NCBI GenBank assembly: GCA_965202985.1
Contig: CBDBCF010000001.1
Location: forward strand, 2,816,001 to 2,880,000
Source: Longimicrobiales bacterium
Lineage (GTDB): Bacteria > Gemmatimonadota > Gemmatimonadetes > Longimicrobiales > Gaopeijiaceae
DNA length: 64,000 nt
Direction of reading: 5' to 3'
The notes below the pieces were generated by a model. The model searched no databases, was not told the origin of the DNA, and saw only the letters and a list, made by a program, of their open reading frames with translations. Positions 49,666-59,913 of this stretch are shown here, in pieces; within the stretch, counting starts at the first letter, position 1; every line of letters starts with the position of its first letter. Both the position numbers and the translations under genes were made by a program.

Positions 49666-52600
49666 CTACCTGTCCGGCGGCCCGGAGTTCCACGACACCG
49701 AAGCGCCCACGTAGCCGCCGCGGGCCGGCCCCGGCTCGAAGTAGCGGCCGCCGAAGGCGTTCACCACCACCGAGGACGCGTATCGGGCGTCGGTGGCGTT
49801 GGTGATCCCCGCGAAGGGCGAGAACCGCACCGAGCCGGCCTGCAGGTCCGTGGCCCCGAAGCGCAGGCCTACGAGGGCGTAGCCGGCGGCTTCGGCTTGG
49901 TTGGCGTCGTCGGCGGGCGTCTGGCCGCGAACCTCTAGGCGGAGTTCACCGAACCAGGCTCCGCGGACGGTGCGCACCGCGGCTTCCAGATGGTGGGGCG
50001 CCACGCCGGGGACTCGGTTGCCGGAGAACGAACGGTCGTCCACTGCGAAGTCGTCGAAGCGCGCGTCCACGAAGCTGTAGGCGATTCGGCTGGACAGCGA
50101 CGGGGACGCCACGGCGCGGACCGACGCCTCCACGCCCCGTATCGTGGACTTCCCGGCGTTGCGGAAGAACCGCCGTCCCGGCGCCCCGGCCACCTCGAAG
50201 GGGACCAACTGGTTCGCCAAGCGCGTCGAGAAGGCGGCCAAGTCGTACGCGATCCCGGCGTCGTCGGGGCCGTCGCCCCCCAGCCCCAGCGACCCCCGCA
50301 CTCCCGCCTCGACCGTCCACCCGTGCTGCGGGTCCAGGCCGGGGTTCAGGCCGCCGGCTCGGTCGGCTTGGTTGGCCAGCTCGGTCGTCGTCGGGGTCTC
50401 GAACGATCGGGCCACGGACGCGAAAAGGCCGTGGCGCCCCAGGTCGGCGTACAGGCCCAGCGACGGGTTGATCGCGCTCATCGCGCGCGTTCCCGAGTCG
50501 TCGGGGTTCTCCGAGTTCACGAACCGGTCGTCGGCCCGGAAGGCGAAGTGGTCGAAGCGCACGGCGCCGGCCATCTCGACGCGGGCGCTCAGGGGAAGTC
50601 GCGCGTGTCCGAATACGGCCGCCGCCCGGACCCGCTCCTGCTGGTCCAGGGTCAGGTCGCCCGCGCTGCCGCCCACGTTGGCGAAGTTCCGGCGGTCGTC
50701 GCTCTGCACCTCCGCGTCGGTGCCGAAGCCCAAGCGCGCCGTGCCTCCGCTCGTAGGCCACCCCTTGGTCAGGACCAGGCGCACCCCGCCGCTGTTCCGG
50801 GTCAGGTCGATCACCTGCGTGGGGATGGGGTTGTCGAGCACCCGCCTGGCGCCGTAGGCCGACGCCTCGGCTTCCAGTCCGCCCAGCGGCCCTTGCCACG
50901 CCGCGCCCGCCTGCATCTGCCGCACGTGCTTGCGGGTTCGCCGGGCCACGTTGAACCCCCAGGCCTGGTTGCTGCCTTGGTCGAAGAGGTCGGCGGGCAG
51001 CGACCCGGGGTTGAGCGCGTCCAAGTCCACGCCCGCCAGCCGGAACGTCAGCGAGCCCCCGCCGGCGCCCAGCGAAGCTCCAACGTTGAGCGTCTGCCGG
51101 GCACCCCCCGCGTAGGGGTTCTCGCCGCTATCGGACGGGTTGTCGCGGAAACCGTCGAGACGGGTCCTGCCGTAGCTGGCGCGGTACTGCACGCCGCCCG
51201 CGGTCCCCGACCCCGAAACCTCGGTGCGCAGCATCCCGTTGGAGCCGCCCGCGAGCACGGCGCCTTGGCGCCAACGGCCGGCAAAGGGTTCGGCGCTTCG
51301 GAACAGGAGTACGCCCCCGGCGGCGTTCCCGTACCAAGCGGCGGCCGGTCCCCGCAGAGCTTCCACGCGCGCCAGAGAGCCGATGTCCAAGTGGTCCAGG
51401 GTGGACTGGCCGTCGGGAAGCGTGGCCGGGATGCCGTCCACGAGGACCTTGATCCCCCGAACGCCGAACTGGGACCGGGCTCCGAAGCCGCGAATCGATA
51501 TGCGCTCGCCCACGGCCAAGTTGTGCCGGTTTTGGACGCGAACGCCCGGCAAGGCGTGAAGGGCCTCCTCGATCGAAGTCCCCGCCGCGCCCTGCGCGAT
51601 TTCCTGCCGGGTCAGGACCGAAGCCGCAAAGGGAAGGCGATCCAGTCGCGCCGGCGACCGCAAGACGGACACCACGATGGGGGCCAGGGTCACCGTGTCC
51701 TTCGCGGGCGGGGCCGGGCGGGAAGCGGTGCGGGGGGCGGTCGTCGTCGGGGAGAAGGCGCTCAAGGCCCCGAACACGCCCAAGGCCCCGAAGACCCCGA
51801 GGGGGCTCCCGACCAGCGTTGGAGTGGCGGCCCCGGCGGAAGGGGCGGACGAGCGAGCGGGGCGTGCGTCCGAGGCTGGAGCGGCGGGTGCGCGGGGCGG
51901 ACTGCCGTCCAAGCGGCGACGTTCCTGTCGCGTCTGGTTGCCGGTGCCGACGCGCAGGTCGAGGGTGAAGTAGGGGTCCTGAGCCGAGATGCGGATCGTT
52001 CGCTCCCTGGCCGCTATCAGGTCCGACAGGTGGTACGCGGTCTCGAAGCGGGCGTTCTTGAGCGTCGCTTCGTCGGCGTCCGCCAGCACCTCCACTTCCA
52101 GGGGCGTGTCGACGGGGACCCAGCAAGCCAAGTAGCGGCCCGAAGCGTCCGTCGCGACGGCCACGCCGCTGTTTCCCTCGCGAAGGGTCGTCACGCCTTC
52201 CTCCGCCGATACGCCGTACCCGCGCCAAAGAACCCGGACCAGCGCGCCGACCATGGGCTGGCCCAGCGAGTCCGCGACTTGGCCGGCCAGCACGCCCGTT
52301 GCGCGCCCCGGATCGGCGCCCGGAACCAAGGCCCTTTCGGCGGGCGGCTTCGCGTGCCGGCAGATGCGGGCCACCGCCCGGCCCACCGACGGCGCCGCGA
52401 AGTTTACCTGGGCCGGCGCCTCGTTCCCCTCTCCGATCTCCACCTGGAAGGGCTCGGCCGAGTAGCCGTAGCGGTCCAGGTACGGATGGGAAAAGTTGAC
52501 CGCGTACACGCCGGGGCGGAGGTGGGTCACCTCGAAGCGGCCTTCTCGGTTCGTGACGACTTCGGCGCCGCCGCCCTCCAGGAAGACGCGCGCGCCCGGC

Positions 52601-53781
52601 AGGCCTTGGCGGAGACTGTCAAAGACGATCCCGGCGATGCGTCCTCCCTTGTCCGCCCGCAGCACCAGCCCTGCGTCGCCGTGGACCTGGAGCACATCGC
52701 CGCCCTGCACGGTGATCCCGTCCAGCGTAGTGGCCATGTGCTTGGTCAGAGGGTTCGTGGAGACGGCGGCCCGGGGCATTCGGATCTCCCACGAATGAAC
52801 GATCCAAGTGCCGTTCGGCAGTGCGCGGAACGACACTCTGCCGCCTGGATTCGCCGAGAGAAGCACGCCCGGGATGTCCAGGTTGCGGTAGCGAAAGTCG
52901 AGCCACTGCAACTGCGCGGTCGCCGGGTCCAGCCACAGCGTGCCGGCCACGTCGGCGACCCGGCGGCCGGGCACGGGCTCGAAGGCCAGGCCGACCAGCC
53001 CCGGTGCGCGGTCCTCGTCCTGTTCCAGCTTGAAGCAGTGCGCGTCCAGGAAGAGATCGGAGAGGAGGACCGCGGCGTCAGGGGCTCGGTACGCGGACTC
53101 GCTCGGCGAGAAGACCGCGAAGCCGTTCCGCATCAGCGAGTCGGCGGGGAGGGCCACGAACGGCGCCTTGCGGTAGCCCTGGTCGAAGGTGCGGTCCTCC
53201 GACAGCACCACGCGGCCTTCGCGGTCCATCTCCCGCCTGACCCCCATCATCTCGTACCGGTACATGCCCCGACTCTGGGTCCACGCGGCGGCGGCCAGCG
53301 CCTTCCGGGCCTCTTCCCAGACGCGGGTCACGGCCAGCCCCTCTTCCGGACGCACGCGGCACCGCCGGTCGGCGCGGGCCTCCAAGCCGTCCAGCGACAC
53401 GGCCTCCACCGCAGCCGCCATGGGCGGGTCGAGCAGCGTCACCGTGTCGCCGGCGGCCAGCTGGAAGGGGCCGGCCTCCGTGGACGCGTAGCCGATCCGG
53501 TCCGCCCGCAGGCGGTATCGTCCCGGTGCCAGCGCGGTCAGCCGGAAGAGGCCATTGTCGCGCGTCAGAACCTGCTCGACCGACCGTCCGCCGGCGTCCA
53601 CCAGCGTCATCATTGCGCCCCCGATGCCTTGTCCGCCCGATTGGGCCGCCTCTACCAACCGGCCCAGCACGACCTGGGCCGGAGAGCCGGTCGCGACGAC
53701 AGGGCTCGCGACGGAGAACAGGCCAGCCGCGACGGAGGCGGCGGCCCAGCAGAGGGCAAAGCGAGTGCGCGGTCGGGGCAG
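49666..53781 (-). CDS. Fusion ORF: carboxypeptidase-regulatory-like (Ig-like) domain protein plus TonB-dependent receptor
   Basis: N-half has GRYRLRADRIGYA, F..HCF, GLPGARV and TDASGRYLAC. C-half has IRGFGARSQFGVRG..DGIPATLPDGQ, EALRGPAAAWYGNAAGG, FETPT and YFEPGP. No stop between halves. Start is CTG 53781 (after GGAGG) or GTG 53862. Confidence 0.8.
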   Translation of the reverse strand: MPRPRTRFALCWAAASVAAGLFSVASPVVATGSPAQVVLGRLVEAAQSGGQGIGGAMMTLVDAGGRSVEQVLTRDNGLFRLTALAPGRYRLRADRIGYASTEAGPFQLAAGDTVTLLDPPMAAAVEAVSLDGLEARADRRCRVRPEEGLAVTRVWEEARKALAAAAWTQSRGMYRYEMMGVRREMDREGRVVLSEDRTFDQGYRKAPFVALPADSLMRNGFAVFSPSESAYRAPDAAVLLSDLFLDAHCFKLEQDEDRAPGLVGLAFEPVPGRRVADVAGTLWLDPATAQLQWLDFRYRNLDIPGVLLSANPGGRVSFRALPNGTWIVHSWEIRMPRAAVSTNPLTKHMATTLDGITVQGGDVLQVHGDAGLVLRADKGGRIAGIVFDSLRQGLPGARVFLEGGGAEVVTNREGRFEVTHLRPGVYAVNFSHPYLDRYGYSAEPFQVEIGEGNEAPAQVNFAAPSVGRAVARICRHAKPPAERALVPGADPGRATGVLAGQVADSLGQPMVGALVRVLWRGYGVSAEEGVTTLREGNSGVAVATDASGRYLACWVPVDTPLEVEVLADADEATLKNARFETAYHLSDLIAARERTIRISAQDPYFTLDLRVGTGNQTRQERRRLDGSPPRAPAAPASDARPARSSAPSAGAATPTLVGSPLGVFGALGVFGALSAFSPTTTAPRTASRPAPPAKDTVTLAPIVVSVLRSPARLDRLPFAASVLTRQEIAQGAAGTSIEEALHALPGVRVQNRHNLAVGERISIRGFGARSQFGVRGIKVLVDGIPATLPDGQSTLDHLDIGSLARVEALRGPAAAWYGNAAGGVLLFRSAEPFAGRWRQGAVLAGGSNGMLRTEVSGSGTAGGVQYRASYGRTRLDGFRDNPSDSGENPYAGGARQTLNVGASLGAGGGSLTFRLAGVDLDALNPGSLPADLFDQGSNQAWGFNVARRTRKHVRQMQAGAAWQGPLGGLEAEASAYGARRVLDNPIPTQVIDLTRNSGGVRLVLTKGWPTSGGTARLGFGTDAEVQSDDRRNFANVGGSAGDLTLDQQERVRAAAVFGHARLPLSARVEMAGAVRFDHFAFRADDRFVNSENPDDSGTRAMSAINPSLGLYADLGRHGLFASVARSFETPTTTELANQADRAGGLNPGLDPQHGWTVEAGVRGSLGLGGDGPDDAGIAYDLAAFSTRLANQLVPFEVAGAPGRRFFRNAGKSTIRGVEASVRAVASPSLSSRIAYSFVDARFDDFAVDDRSFSGNRVPGVAPHHLEAAVRTVRGAWFGELRLEVRGQTPADDANQAEAAGYALVGLRFGATDLQAGSVRFSPFAGITNATDARYASSVVVNAFGGRYFEPGPARGGYVGASVSWNSGPPDR

Positions 53782-53916
53782 GGACGACCTCCGAGTGCGG
53801 GGTCCGGTCTTGCCGGGTAGCGGGTCTACTGGATTCCGGCGCGTGATCCGATCGCCGGGCACGCGGTCCGGCTCCCAAGGTAATACTCGGGTGGACGACG
53901 GGTGCACTGGCGGACC

Positions 53917-53945
53917 TTGCACGCCTGGGCGCAGGCAACTAGGAT
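53917..53945 (+). promoter_or_regulatory. Putative sigma70 promoter of peptide/propeller operon
   Basis: TTGCAC-N17-TAGGAT about 90 nt upstream of ATG 54035. Confidence 0.55.
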
Positions 53946-54034
53946 CAGGATCACAGCTGGGTCGTTTCGGTCCGTATGGCAGTTGGCCTGCGGGGGAGCG
54001 TGCCGGAGTCCAACTTTCCCAACAAGGAGGGAAC

Positions 54035-54421
54035 ATGTCCAAGTGGTCCAAAGAGAACATCGTCAAGGTCGTCGTTGGCCTCACCGTCGTCGCTGCAGCG
54101 GGGTGGGCCGGGGTGCTCTGGACCGAGGCTTGGTCCGTGGGCACCTACGGGGCCTACGTCATCGCACTCGGGTTGCTGGGCGGTATCGTGTGGGCCGCAT
54201 GGAGACTCGGGTCGAGAAGGACGAAGAAGGTTGGGGTGGCGATGGCAGCGCTGGTCGCTGTCGGGGGACTGCTGATCGTTACCCTTGGCGCACCGGAGGT
54301 CTGCGCCGATGGTGGGTGTGCGAACGAGGCGTGCGTCCGAGACTTGCCTTGCCTCGTGACGTGTCCGCCTTGCAACGGCAGCCCATTTGACCCGGGCACA
54401 TGCTGGTACGCAATGCACTAG
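54035..54421 (+). CDS. 128-aa membrane protein with C-terminal Cys-rich peptide (putative secreted disulfide-rich peptide precursor)
   Basis: Strong RBS AAGGAGG, three hydrophobic helices, and tail DGGCANEACVRDLPCLVTCPPCNGSPFDPGTCWYAMH. Confidence 0.75.
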   Translation: MSKWSKENIVKVVVGLTVVAAAGWAGVLWTEAWSVGTYGAYVIALGLLGGIVWAAWRLGSRRTKKVGVAMAALVAVGGLLIVTLGAPEVCADGGCANEACVRDLPCLVTCPPCNGSPFDPGTCWYAMH

Positions 54422-54456
54422 CGTCGCCGCCGAATCCGACCGCCCGGCGCGGGTTG

Positions 54457-55572
54457 ATGGGATACCCAGCGCGACTTGCCTTCTTGCTGGCTCTGGCGGG
54501 GTGTTCGTCGTCCGGGCACGGTGCTGTCGCGCCTTCACTTGCGATCGACGAGTCCGAATCGTGTCGCGATTGCGAGATCGCCTTCCGAACAGTCGCGTTG
54601 CTGGGAGGCGACGACGATCCCGGTTCGGTGTGGGGCAGAGCGGCGGGAGACGGGTGCATGGTCGGGCAGCTGAGCACAGGCGAATTCTTGCTGGGCGGGG
54701 TTGCAGGCGGCGGCGACATCTTCGTCTACGACGAGGACGGGAGGTTCGTGCGGGCTATGAACCGCGAGGGCCAGGGGCCCGGCGAAGTGCAGGGCATGGC
54801 CCGTATCTGGGTAGGACCGGGCGATACGCTCTTCGTGGCGGACGACGGGAACAACCGATTGCAGGTCCTGACCTCTCAAGGCGAATACGTTCGCTCCTTC
54901 GGGATGCCAGCGCCTTATCGCCGGTTCGCTCGTTTAGGTACGGGAGACCTCGTCTTCGCTCGATCCGTGACGAGTCCCGGCGACGACACATTCGTTCTGG
55001 TCGATGCTGTCGGCCGGGAAGTCGAAAGGTTCGGCCCGTCGATGGTCGCCGAGCCGGACCTGGAGCGAGTTCTTGCAAGCCCTCGTCCCGGGACGGAAGC
55101 GACCTTCTGGGCAGCCAGCATGTGGCGCTACGCCGTCCACGAATGGAGCGCGCGGGGCGCGACCGAGCAGTCGCTTACTCTGAAGCGAACGTTGGTGCGG
55201 GAAGCCGACTGGTTTCCGGCGTACCCGGAGTTCGGTGCCGAAGTGTACGAGTCCGCTCCGCCGCCGGCGGCACTGCACCACGTCTGGGAGGACGACGAAG
55301 GGCTTCTCTGGACGTACGTCTTGCTGCCGGACCCGGATTGGCACCCGGGCATTCCGTTCAACCCGCGCCCCGCTTGGCACCGCGACACCTTCGACCACCG
55401 GGTCGAGGTGATTGATCCGTCCTCGGGCCGCCTCGTCGCCGTCGGCCAACACGAGGACAGGTTCTCTCCCGTGTGCGGCAGCAAGCTCATGTACGCGGTG
55501 ACCGAGACTCCAGCCGGCGACCTGCGCGTAAAGGTCGTGGAGCCCTACCTGACGAGAGGGCCTTCCGAATAG
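54457..55572 (+). CDS. 6-bladed beta-propeller (NHL/TolB-like) lipoprotein
   Basis: Lipobox LAGC, REGQGPGE motif, DTLFVADDGNNR and DDEGLLW. Confidence 0.8.
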   Translation: MGYPARLAFLLALAGCSSSGHGAVAPSLAIDESESCRDCEIAFRTVALLGGDDDPGSVWGRAAGDGCMVGQLSTGEFLLGGVAGGGDIFVYDEDGRFVRAMNREGQGPGEVQGMARIWVGPGDTLFVADDGNNRLQVLTSQGEYVRSFGMPAPYRRFARLGTGDLVFARSVTSPGDDTFVLVDAVGREVERFGPSMVAEPDLERVLASPRPGTEATFWAASMWRYAVHEWSARGATEQSLTLKRTLVREADWFPAYPEFGAEVYESAPPPAALHHVWEDDEGLLWTYVLLPDPDWHPGIPFNPRPAWHRDTFDHRVEVIDPSSGRLVAVGQHEDRFSPVCGSKLMYAVTETPAGDLRVKVVEPYLTRGPSE

Positions 55573-55642
55573 CGATTAACCTTCAGTGGCATCTGACGCC
55601 GCTGGTCCACTTTGACGCACTATAAGCGCGAAAGGACATCCG

Positions 55643-57600
<1,958 letters not shown>

Positions 57601-57761: not shown

Positions 57762-58283
57762 ATGAGGGCACAAACGGCAGAAACCACGGTCAGCGAGGAA
57801 CTCTTCGGCAAGCTGGTCATGGAGCACTGGCCGCGGCTCGTGCAGCAGGCCGAGCAGTACCGTGGCCGGGCCGAGACGGCAGAGGACATCGCGCAACGGG
57901 CAGTCATCAACGCCCATGGGCAGCTTCACAGGCTGAAGAATCCCGAGAGGGCCGGGCGATGGCTGGCGAAGTTCGTGCAGTTCGCAGGACTCAAGTCCGT
58001 GGCGAAGCGGGCAAGGCGACGGGAGCTGCTTCAGGCCCACGGCCTGCCGGACCGCGGACACGCCAAGTCGCCGGAGGAGCTCATGCTCCTGGAGCTGGAG
58101 GACGAAGCGCTGGACCGGGCGATCGACGAACTGCCCGAGAGGTGGCGCACCGTCGTCCTTTCCCGCCTAGCCGGACTCTCCGTGAGCGAAACGGCAGCCA
58201 AGCTGGGAATACCCGAGGGCAGCGTGAAGTCGTACACGCACAGGGCCGTCTGCGTTCTCCGCGAGGCGGTGGCGACGACCTGA
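57762..58283 (+). CDS. ECF RNA polymerase sigma factor (divergent, no adjacent anti-sigma)
   Basis: AEDIAQRA, RWL, AIDELPER and ETAAKLGIPEGSVKS. RBS GGGAG. Confidence 0.85.
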   Translation: MRAQTAETTVSEELFGKLVMEHWPRLVQQAEQYRGRAETAEDIAQRAVINAHGQLHRLKNPERAGRWLAKFVQFAGLKSVAKRARRRELLQAHGLPDRGHAKSPEELMLLELEDEALDRAIDELPERWRTVVLSRLAGLSVSETAAKLGIPEGSVKSYTHRAVCVLREAVATT

Positions 58284-58443
58284 ACCACCGCGTTTCCAGA
58301 ACCCCTCCGCGACCGATTCTCGGTTCTTGGGCTCGGGAAACGCGATGGGTCGGGAAGCGAATTCTGCCCGGCCGACGACCTTACCCACGTGCTGCAATAG
58401 GATCAGACGCCCAGCCTAGTACCCAGCGGTGAACTGGTCGGGC

Positions 58444-58895
58444 CTAGGTCGCCACTCGGGCCAGCAACTCCCCGACCGTGTCGCACTCGATGACGTCTGC
58501 CGCCGCGTCCAGCTGGTCGCGTCCGTCCAGGCCGCCGATCACGCCCCGACAGTTGCCCGGCCGCGTCCGCGCCGAACTTCTTGGCCACCAGGCGTTCCAG
58601 GACCTCCCGCCGCCCTGTCCGACGACCTTCCGCTCGCAGCCTTGCCATCTCTTCTTCGATCTGTGTGTACATCTGCCTGCCTCCGTCAAGTTGGTGATCT
58701 TCGACAGTTCCTCTTCCGAACGGCCCCACTGCCGCGCCCAACGCCCACAGCGCGAACGCCTCCGGTATCGATGCGCCACACCATGTCGGCCTGTCGGCGC
58801 GAGCTTGGAGGCCGACGCGCTCGAGGCCAGGTATCGGTCGACGGCGGCGCAGCTCCCGGAACCGGGCCACCTCGGACAGCGGGAGAGAACTTGGC
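58444..58895 (-). pseudogene. Internally deleted tandem copy of the adjacent Rpn gene
   Basis: RRQADMVWRID is joined directly to PEAFALWALGA. The C-terminal ~330 bp are highly similar to 58900-59250, with frameshifts. Confidence 0.85.
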
Positions 58896-58899
58896 TGGA

Positions 58900-59151
58900 C
58901 TAGTTGGCGAGCCGGGCGATCAGCTCCCCGACCGTGTCGCACTCGATGACAGCGTCCGCCGCCGCGTCCAGCTGGTCGCGTCCGTCCAGGCCGCCGATCA
59001 GGCCCGACAACTGTCCGGCCGCATCCGCGCCGAACTTCTTGGCCACCTGGCGCTCCAAGAGGGTCCTGGCTTCCCGGCGGCCCTCTCGGCGGCCTTCCCG
59101 GCGGCCCTCGTCCCGCAGCCTTGCCATCTCTTCTTCGATCTGCGTGTACAT
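58900..59151 (-). CDS. In-frame internal ORF of Rpn (RpnS-like putative antitoxin, 83 aa)
   Basis: GGAGG (59160-59164) 8 nt before in-frame ATG 59151, giving MYTQIEEEMARLRDEG... Confidence 0.6.
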   Translation of the reverse strand: MYTQIEEEMARLRDEGRREGRREGRREARTLLERQVAKKFGADAAGQLSGLIGGLDGRDQLDAAADAVIECDTVGELIARLAN

Positions 59152-59913
59152 CGCTCTTGCCTCCGTCAAGTCGGTGATCTTCGACAGTTCATCTTCCGAA
59201 CGTCCCCACTGCCGCGCCGCGCCCAACGCCCACAGCGCGAACGCCTCCGGGACCCCGGCGTGCTCGGGACCGGGATACGCCTCCAACACCTCGTCCAGCA
59301 CGGCCCGGACCTTCCCCGTGCCGCCGTCCCGCTCGAGCTCCCTCAACCAAGTCAGGATGCGCGGCTTCCGCAAGCTTCGCCCGGGCACCGCACGCATGTC
59401 AAGCACTTGGTACGGCAGCCGGACCGAGAGGTCGCGGAGCTGGGGCAGCGTGGGCGAGATCAGGTCCGCGATGTCGAGGCGGGCGTCCCAAGGACGGGGG
59501 CCGTTGTGGACGACGCAGACGACGACGGGGGGTAGCCGGTGGTCGGCACCGGACGGCGTCTCGCGGATTAGGTTCTCGTAGGCGTCGGTCACGTAGCGGA
59601 GGACGCGGGCGGCCATGGAGGGGTCGACCCGGGACTGGAACTCGAGGAGCAGGACCATAAAGCCGGGGCGGTGTCGGAAGTCGACGCGCCAGATCATGTC
59701 GGCCTGTCGGCGTTCGAGCCGGGAGTCGACATGCTCCGGCGTGACCTTGCGCATCGAGTCGAGGTCGAGTTGGTCAGCCCATTCGGGAGCGAGGTAGTCT
59801 TCGAGGAGTTCTGCGACGGTGGGGGCCTGGGAGAAGAAGAACTTGTAGACCTCGTCGTGCTTGCGGCGTGGTGGGCGGTGGGAGCCGTGAGACTCTCGGT
59901 GGGCGTCGTGCAA
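58900..59913 (-). CDS. Rpn family recombination-promoting nuclease/putative transposase (YhgA-like)
   Basis: HDEVYK, ADMIW, LEFQSRVDPSMAAR, LPPVV..VHNG..PW and EGRREGRREG repeats. Confidence 0.92.
   Translation of the reverse strand: MHDAHRESHGSHRPPRRKHDEVYKFFFSQAPTVAELLEDYLAPEWADQLDLDSMRKVTPEHVDSRLERRQADMIWRVDFRHRPGFMVLLLEFQSRVDPSMAARVLRYVTDAYENLIRETPSGADHRLPPVVVCVVHNGPRPWDARLDIADLISPTLPQLRDLSVRLPYQVLDMRAVPGRSLRKPRILTWLRELERDGGTGKVRAVLDEVLEAYPGPEHAGVPEAFALWALGAARQWGRSEDELSKITDLTEARAMYTQIEEEMARLRDEGRREGRREGRREARTLLERQVAKKFGADAAGQLSGLIGGLDGRDQLDAAADAVIECDTVGELIARLAN

Follow-up and report, generated by a model that had tools for sequence, protein, structure and literature searches.

The small gene at 54035-54421 of the window (the whole 64,000-nucleotide stretch of Longimicrobiales DNA that was analysed) is a real gene, and its product belongs to an unnamed Gemmatimonadota family of knottin-like secreted peptides encoded in a mobile cassette of peptide, oxidase and propeller genes. 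The copy in the window is derived: its leader has three helices, and a private oxidase is missing. The peptide most likely works like a knottin and is not a member of a plant inhibitor family. The features of the locus are collected in Table 1.

Table 1. Features of the peptide locus, in nucleotide positions of the window
Position	Strand	Feature	Basis
54024..54030	+	Ribosome-binding site AAGGAGG, 4 nt 5' of the ATG; also kept in the G101 orthologue	
54035..54421	+	Precursor gene, 128 amino acids from the ATG at 54035; three hydrophobic helices and a six-Cys tail	
54062..54205	+	Leader extension specific to this lineage; a helical hairpin is predicted (approximately residues 10-29 and 39-57)	Hydropathy and charge in P0001 and P0003-P0006
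54206..54229	+	Basic loop, residues 58-65, five Lys/Arg, predicted cytoplasmic; corresponds to the n-region of the signal peptide in the family	
54230..54307	+	Third helix and c-region ending in V-C-A (89-91); the family signal peptide, internal here; predicted signal peptidase I site after Ala91	
54308..54418	+	Predicted mature 37-amino acid knottin-like peptide	
54457..55572	+	Propeller 1: DUF5128 six-bladed beta-propeller lipoprotein, lipobox LAGC; candidate partner	PF17170, E = 2e-8
55646..56854	+	Propeller 2: second DUF5128 lipoprotein, of another subfamily (clade)	PF17170, E = 2e-5

Gene, reading frame and conservation

A first-pass annotation, made from the sequence alone, had proposed a small gene behind a strong ribosome-binding site, coding for two transmembrane helices, a signal-peptide-like unit and a six-Cys tail. 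All of these elements were recovered. The precursor has hydropathy maxima at residues 12-28, 39-55 and 66-82, a basic RRTKK at 61-65 and APEVCA at 86-91, followed by the 37-residue tail, in which the Cys residues are spaced C-x4-C-x5-C-x3-C-x2-C-x9-C (4-5-3-2-9). This spacing was unique to the peptide gene among 49,711 six-frame segments of the genome. The precursor holds seven Cys in total (residues 90, 95, 100, 106, 110, 113 and 123).

In the list of open reading frames the gene is covered by a 288-amino acid frame that opens at TTG 53555. The earlier view that this longer frame is spurious was borne out, because its upstream part has no codon periodicity (GC by codon position 0.65/0.71/0.71, versus 0.60/0.55/0.78 in the peptide gene); the same part overlaps a divergent gene on the other strand. 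Two later starts were considered: Val53 was rejected, its codon being GTC in G101, and Met70 is unlikely, as it leaves no basic n-region. An assembly error is an improbable source of the long leader, since contigs from two public runs (one sample, possibly the source) span 53700-54714 with zero differences and zero gaps. A 78-amino acid frameshifted variant, P0007, is present in the protein collection and absent from the contigs of the two runs.

A full-length orthologue was found in one of three same-genus genomes (G101, 67% identity), and the protein collection supplied three more relatives at 64-77% identity. The six-Cys tail is under purifying selection: for G000, the genome that contains the window, versus G101, dN/dS is 0.17 in the tail (Fisher P = 0.0004). 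The signal segment gives 0.53 and the extension 0.58, and selection on the extension alone is not significant (P = 0.14).

NCBIfam held no matching family for the peptide, and the Pfam matches were all sub-threshold. The Atlas search returned no usable match for the window protein, and P0019 matched only unnamed clusters at 0.79-0.81. Neither a sigma-70 promoter nor a terminator was found within 53600-57300.

Leader extension, topology and cleavage site

Export of the Cys-rich tail, another claim of the first-pass annotation, agrees with the charge distribution of the window protein, whose Lys/Arg residues number three ahead of helix 1, zero in the first loop and five in the second. The positive-inside rule underlies the cytoplasmic placing of the basic loop; read in this way, the charges very probably put the N-terminus inside, followed by a hairpin, the basic loop inside and the tail outside. 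The identical three-helix pattern was seen in P0003-P0006.

Judged by their distribution, the two extra helices are a recent, derived leader add-on in close relatives and not the design of the family. They are confined to five close relatives (P0001 and P0003-P0006) and absent both from distant members and from G124, the nearest member outside the genus (59% identity). The extension is read as derived because most members have a plain signal peptide. A search of five close genomes found it in the orthologue only, and nowhere else at a convincing score. It carries an in-frame 27-nt indel relative to G101. Upstream of four propellers of G000 (C2:248030, C2:257698, C2:907405 and C1:1156095) lie other small Cys-rich exported ORFs whose long N-terminal extensions include a hydrophobic stretch before the signal peptide, and extended leaders may be a trend in these cassettes.

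The helix 3 segment aligns with the plain signal peptides of relatives. When assessed by eye and hydropathy, residues 58-91 display n-, h- and c-regions with small residues at -3 and -1, as expected of a signal peptidase I substrate; the site reads V-C-A here and A-C-A in four relatives (P0003-P0005 and P0008), and 22 of the 28 full-length members have a small-x-Ala site before Cys I. On these features cleavage is predicted after Ala91 and is likely. Cys90, at -2 of the predicted site, is present in 9 of the 28 full-length members, always as x-C-A, the others having Tyr, Phe, Thr or Ser at that position; the -2 position of a signal peptidase I site is free to vary, and the pattern fits this. 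Cys90 as a lipoprotein anchor was rejected, given that there is no lipobox and that the residue is absent in 19 of 28. The available text of one review (PMC9360617) gives no instance of cleavage by signal peptidase I after a helix that is internal.

The peptide family

A profile search of 1.84 billion representatives recovered 23 proteins with E values of 0.001 or lower, which stand for 23 clusters at 50% identity. Non-seed members comprise 60-86 amino acids, mostly 60-65, with a plain signal peptide and then six Cys. Source names place members in Longimicrobiales, an order of Gemmatimonadota. The family is present in 14 of 301 genomes of the host's taxonomic family and in 12 of 401 genomes of the phylum sample, in four families, and totals 21 loci in 19 genomes, a count that leaves out the false positives L050, L051 and L063.

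The Cys pattern holds among the homologues: six Cys are kept across the family, with the spacing 4-5-3-2-9 in 20 of 44 members. Locus L072 (G410:C17, oriented 1017-1686) holds three divergent six-Cys peptides in tandem between a thioredoxin-like gene and a propeller gene, and the spacing of one G410 member, 4-5-4-2-5, is identical to that of the fungal knottin 6H0I. Mature parts are net negative in 40 of 44 members and net positive in two. Cationic antimicrobial Cys-rich peptides carry a net positive charge, which is not the case for this family, and the acidity of the peptides argues against membrane lysis; the peptide may either signal or do harm.

A metagenome scan gave 254 pattern matches, none of them confirmed, and a word-index search with P0008 gave no candidates. 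In a literature search that was thin on subscription journals, no description of the peptide family or of the cassette was found.

Fold of the mature peptide

Three methods rank knottins first, and a knottin fold of the mature peptide is, on the models and alignments, quite probable. A family profile built from 21 mature peptides gave six PDB hits at E = 10, the best of which was 6H0I (E = 0.03; the six Cys of the family all align) and which also included tomato 2HLG (E = 6.4); Cys-rich profiles match by composition. According to the available text of PMC6889267, 6H0I is a cystine knot with the pairing I-IV, II-V and III-VI. By transfer of this pairing through the alignment, we infer the putative disulfides Cys95-110, Cys100-113 and Cys106-123. 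The generic knottin spacing given in that text (C-x2-7-C-x3-10-C-x0-7-C-x1-17-C-x4-19-C), a permissive pattern, is found in 43 of 44 members, that of the window included. PDB sequence searches with A1 and P0010 returned nothing meaningful.

The AlphaFold model of the window peptide (44 alignment rows, pLDDT 68) was compared with 48,161 chains. Just two reached Z = 2, both cystine knots: an engineered cystine-knot peptide (Z = 2.7, r.m.s.d. 2.1 Å, 30 aligned residues) and the wolfberry carboxypeptidase inhibitor (Z = 2.6, r.m.s.d. 2.6 Å, 33 aligned residues). For a second model, that of a divergent G410 member (pLDDT 78), 17 chains reached Z = 2 or more; the top three, 8SE8, 2HLG and 6JIC (Z = 3.4, 3.2 and 3.1), are carboxypeptidase-inhibitor-type knots at r.m.s.d. 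1.7-2.8 Å, and the lower hits are mostly knotted venom peptides, with EETI-II (rank 6, Z = 2.4) and some defensin-type peptides among them. Foldseek with the G410 model likewise returned cystine-knot peptides and 6H0I (rank 3), at TM about 0.6 and E = 0.55-4. Most alignment rows are common to both models. The knottin-like fold put forward by the first-pass annotation, with AlphaFold and Foldseek as checks, has weak though consistent support: knottins head the profile and chain searches, but for the window model neither Foldseek nor its VIA follow-up gave a hit, and all fold scores lie below the significance marks of the tools.

The annotation had also likened the tail to squash and potato inhibitors. 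Here the part concerning the fold stood, carboxypeptidase-inhibitor scaffolds being the top hits and, on the models, apparently a closer match than squash inhibitors. The part concerning motifs did not. In squash trypsin inhibitors the loop from Cys I to Cys II supplies the reactive residue, an Arg or Lys; the window peptide has no basic residue in this loop, and the position is not conserved. The motif of the plant carboxypeptidase inhibitors is likewise missing, as detailed below.

Oxidase and propeller neighbours

The usual gene order is peptide, DsbA-like oxidase and DUF5128 propeller. In 16 of 21 loci the peptide gene has a DsbA- or thioredoxin-like neighbour. This neighbour is DsbA-like and directly 3' of the peptide in 15 of them, and in G410 a thioredoxin-like gene is located upstream of the three peptides. 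All five oxidase genes checked against Pfam match PF13462/PF01323; the remaining ones were assigned from motifs by eye. This dedicated gene had been overlooked at first, and it is absent at the window locus: G000, G101, G124, G043 and G252 are without a cassette oxidase. G000 has three DsbA-type genes elsewhere, one of them beside a gene labelled by eye as VKOR-like.

A propeller follows the peptide in 19 of 21 loci, and a different exported protein does so in the other two (G589 and G425). Small Cys-rich ORFs before propeller genes, which the first-pass annotation had suggested looking for in related genomes, do therefore occur there. Both propellers of the window belong to PF17170 (34.2 and 24.4 bits versus a curated cut-off of 22.9). 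Propeller 1 accompanies the peptide in G101 and G124; propeller 2 is not conserved behind it, other genes being found at that place in these two genomes. The cassette is considered mobile because its flanks differ in every genome and because in G124 the peptide-propeller pair (L004) lies between two copies of one small gene, presumably DUF2283-like. These flanking copies suggest insertion by recombination or duplication.

A quick tree was computed for 107 of 124 propellers, 17 rows having been dropped as too short or weak. Of 18 peptide-adjacent propellers in it, 11 belong to the propeller-1 clade (SH-aLRT 98) and five to another clade (SH-aLRT 88). Fourteen rows had been recruited by likeness to propeller 1, and the fair comparison is that of propellers reached through the peptide: 5 of 12 fall in the propeller-1 clade, versus 2 of 81 of G000's own. 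Two of these five are paralogues of a seed locus; without them the count is 3 of 10. Peptide-adjacent propellers do not form one clade (11 changes on the quick tree), which speaks against the partner reading.

In the propeller-1 clade, 10 of 21 propellers have no peptide upstream (scanned up to 1.5 kb). Two of these ten, both intact, still have a remnant of the peptide gene in front of them, namely a decayed C-terminal remnant in G096 (L022) and the first signal-peptide residues in G059 (L032). At L061 (G337), a frameshifted peptide copy precedes an intact propeller. The propeller-1 orthologue of G055 (L020, 85% identity) has no peptide gene and is preceded by what appears, by eye, to be a helix-turn-helix regulator-like gene; the GGAGGGAAC-ATG context in front of it is also that of the window's peptide gene. 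G000 is in general rich in orphan propellers (45 PF17170 matches; 98 propeller-profile hits in 70 clusters), which weakens the argument from asymmetry. At least 12 of the profile hits are, by eye, preceded by other small exported Cys-rich ORFs with different spacing. Complex prediction for the peptide with propeller 1 gave no verdict (score 0.00, the fold of the partner being uncertain) and carries no weight here. A literature search on DUF5128 found no paper.

Proposed mechanism and alternative explanations

The gene, its family, the selection acting on the tail and the order of the genes are established. Going beyond these, our tentative proposal is that the tail of the precursor faces the periplasm, folds as a cystine knot, is freed by signal peptidase I and acts as a ligand of the propeller lipoprotein. 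The N-terminus would stay inside, helices 1 and 2 would form a hairpin and, with the basic loop also inside, helix 3 would carry the tail outward. A DsbA-type enzyme, encoded in the cassette in most relatives and supplied in trans here, would oxidise the six Cys. Cleavage after Ala91 would yield a free, acidic 37-residue knottin, and the cognate propeller would read or neutralise it, as one half of a signal-receptor or toxin-immunity pair. The two-helix extension would alter the export route and not the product. The ligand role itself has a nearly even chance of being right, because of the linkage, the partial clade specificity and the propellers that outlive their peptides; a partner outliving its peptide is typical of signal-receptor and toxin-immunity systems. 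A broader scheme, in which Gemmatimonadota have a peptide recognition system whose mobile cassettes match each hypervariable secreted knottin, a true cystine knot, with its own DsbA and with a propeller that serves as its receptor or immunity protein, while orphan propellers eavesdrop or protect and the three-helix form is released by internal cleavage, is speculative and, as a whole, somewhat doubtful.

The main rival to the ligand reading is protease inhibition: the secreted knottin would inhibit an extracellular protease, like plant metallocarboxypeptidase inhibitors, and the propeller gene would be a mere neighbour. The identity of the top fold hits (8SE8, 2HLG and 6JIC) fits this idea, as does the C-terminus of the window peptide, where an aromatic tail of five residues follows the last Cys; 26 of 44 family tails begin with an aromatic residue. 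However, the plant inhibitor consensus CX3CX4DCX5CX2C, as given in the available text of PMC10687636, occurs in 0 of 44 members and its loosened form in 9. In the same text, four conserved hydrophobic terminal residues are the inhibitory element of the plant inhibitors; the window's own tail alone is compatible with such an element, the family tails ranging from 1 to 10 residues and ending in 16 different residues. Moreover, no protease gene is conserved in the cassette. With the motif missing and the tail not conserved, the inhibitor role advanced by the first-pass annotation is unlikely.

The peptide could also stay in place, as an uncut three-helix inner-membrane protein presenting a tethered knottin to the periplasm and, for example, holding or signalling to the propeller. 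All five close relatives have three helices, the extension indel keeps the frame, and the odd seventh Cys could form a covalent link. On the other hand, an A-x-A-type site is conserved after helix 3 at a normal c-region length, the seventh Cys is also present in the plain-signal members P0008, P0014, P0024 and P0025, at a -2 position that is removed by cleavage, and the extension evolves as fast as the signal region; tethering is accordingly hard to favour and we regard it as improbable. Even less can be said for the propeller as a peptide-modifying enzyme of a ribosomal peptide pathway, e.g. one that amidates in the manner of a peptidyl-hydroxyglycine lyase-like propeller. Its profile does match NHL propellers, including the amidating enzyme (E = 6e-6), and the order precursor, oxidase, partner recalls a biosynthetic cluster. 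Peptidyl-hydroxyglycine lyase needs three Zn-binding His, yet across 21 propellers no His column comes close to invariance (13 of 21 at most); just 4 of 44 peptides end in Gly and propellers persist after peptide loss, so that such an activity is very unlikely. The tail might finally bind metal through its thiols, as a Zn ribbon or metallothionein-like peptide with no disulfides. The CxxC pair and a weak zinc-ribbon hit in one of 44 members (E = 0.01, below the cut-off) point in that direction; the export signal, the DsbA-like neighbour in 16 of 21 loci, the even number of conserved Cys (six) and the disulfide-rich peptides among the family's fold hits point away from it and make metal binding highly improbable.

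Surroundings in the window

Divergent from the peptide gene, a stop-free frame at 49666-54144 (minus strand) joins several PF13620 (carboxypeptidase-regulatory-like) domains to a TonB-dependent receptor via a long Pro/Ala-rich linker; it is either a true fusion or the result of a lost stop. At 55482-55557, a much deeper contig (depth 100-200 versus 15) occurs in both runs; it matches the 3' end of propeller 1 apart from 3 differences and then runs on into other sequence, as from a relative that is more abundant and has another gene downstream. An insertion-sequence remnant at 57071-57260 is suggested by transposase-like ORF text and by the very high depth of contigs at the edge 57071-57100. 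Further downstream lie an orphan ECF sigma factor (57762-58283) and an Rpn/YhgA-like gene (58900-59913, minus strand) with a duplicated 3' end just downstream of it (region 58400-59913).

Significance

Peptides of 35-45 residues can be synthesised, and the structural gap for bacterial knottins is therefore directly testable. The family offers new stable scaffolds, and the cassette is the first clue found to what DUF5128 propellers do, a group that has multiplied enormously in these bacteria. The pair of plain-signal and three-helix precursors represents a natural experiment on internal signal-sequence cleavage in bacteria.

Comparison with known peptides and systems

The KNOTTIN database lists bacterial knottins, none of which had an experimental structure according to the available text of its 2017 description (PMC5753296). 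The likeness to our family, compared by description only, consists in knottin-like sequences in bacteria. Two papers on sponge peptides (PMC13418204 and PMC12426817) treat knottins, in the text available, as eukaryotic products and describe no such cassette. The rust fungus protein MLP124266 (6H0I) has six Cys in register with the family profile; judging from the accessible part of PMC6889267, it differs in being fungal, in its disordered N-terminal half and in its eight Cys, and E = 0.03 is no proof of common ancestry.

Plant metallocarboxypeptidase inhibitors (tomato 2HLG, wolfberry 6JIC and engineered 8SE8, the last of which is built on such a scaffold according to the available text of PMC11111691) are the best structural matches of both models. 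Like the family, they are secreted six-Cys peptides in which Cys IV and V form a CxxC and the C-terminal tail is short. The Gemmatimonadota peptides, in contrast, are bacterial, have a variable tail and are encoded with DsbA and propeller genes, and PF02977 had no match among the 44 members at E = 1.

The peptide-propeller loci also resemble the NVEALA arrangement of Bacteroidota, in which a small exported Cys-containing protein is encoded directly upstream of a DUF5128-type propeller lipoprotein at many paralogous loci. NVEALA differs in Cys pattern and phylum; no family member matched it, and a literature search on NVEALA found no paper. Some disulfide-bonded exported peptides have a dedicated thiol oxidoreductase in their operon. 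The family shares with them the private oxidase, whereas a dedicated transporter and a double-glycine leader are absent and the peptides are acidic. Finally, the extended signal peptides of autotransporters have one more hydrophobic segment before an otherwise ordinary signal peptide, whereas the extension in the window is a full two-helix hairpin.
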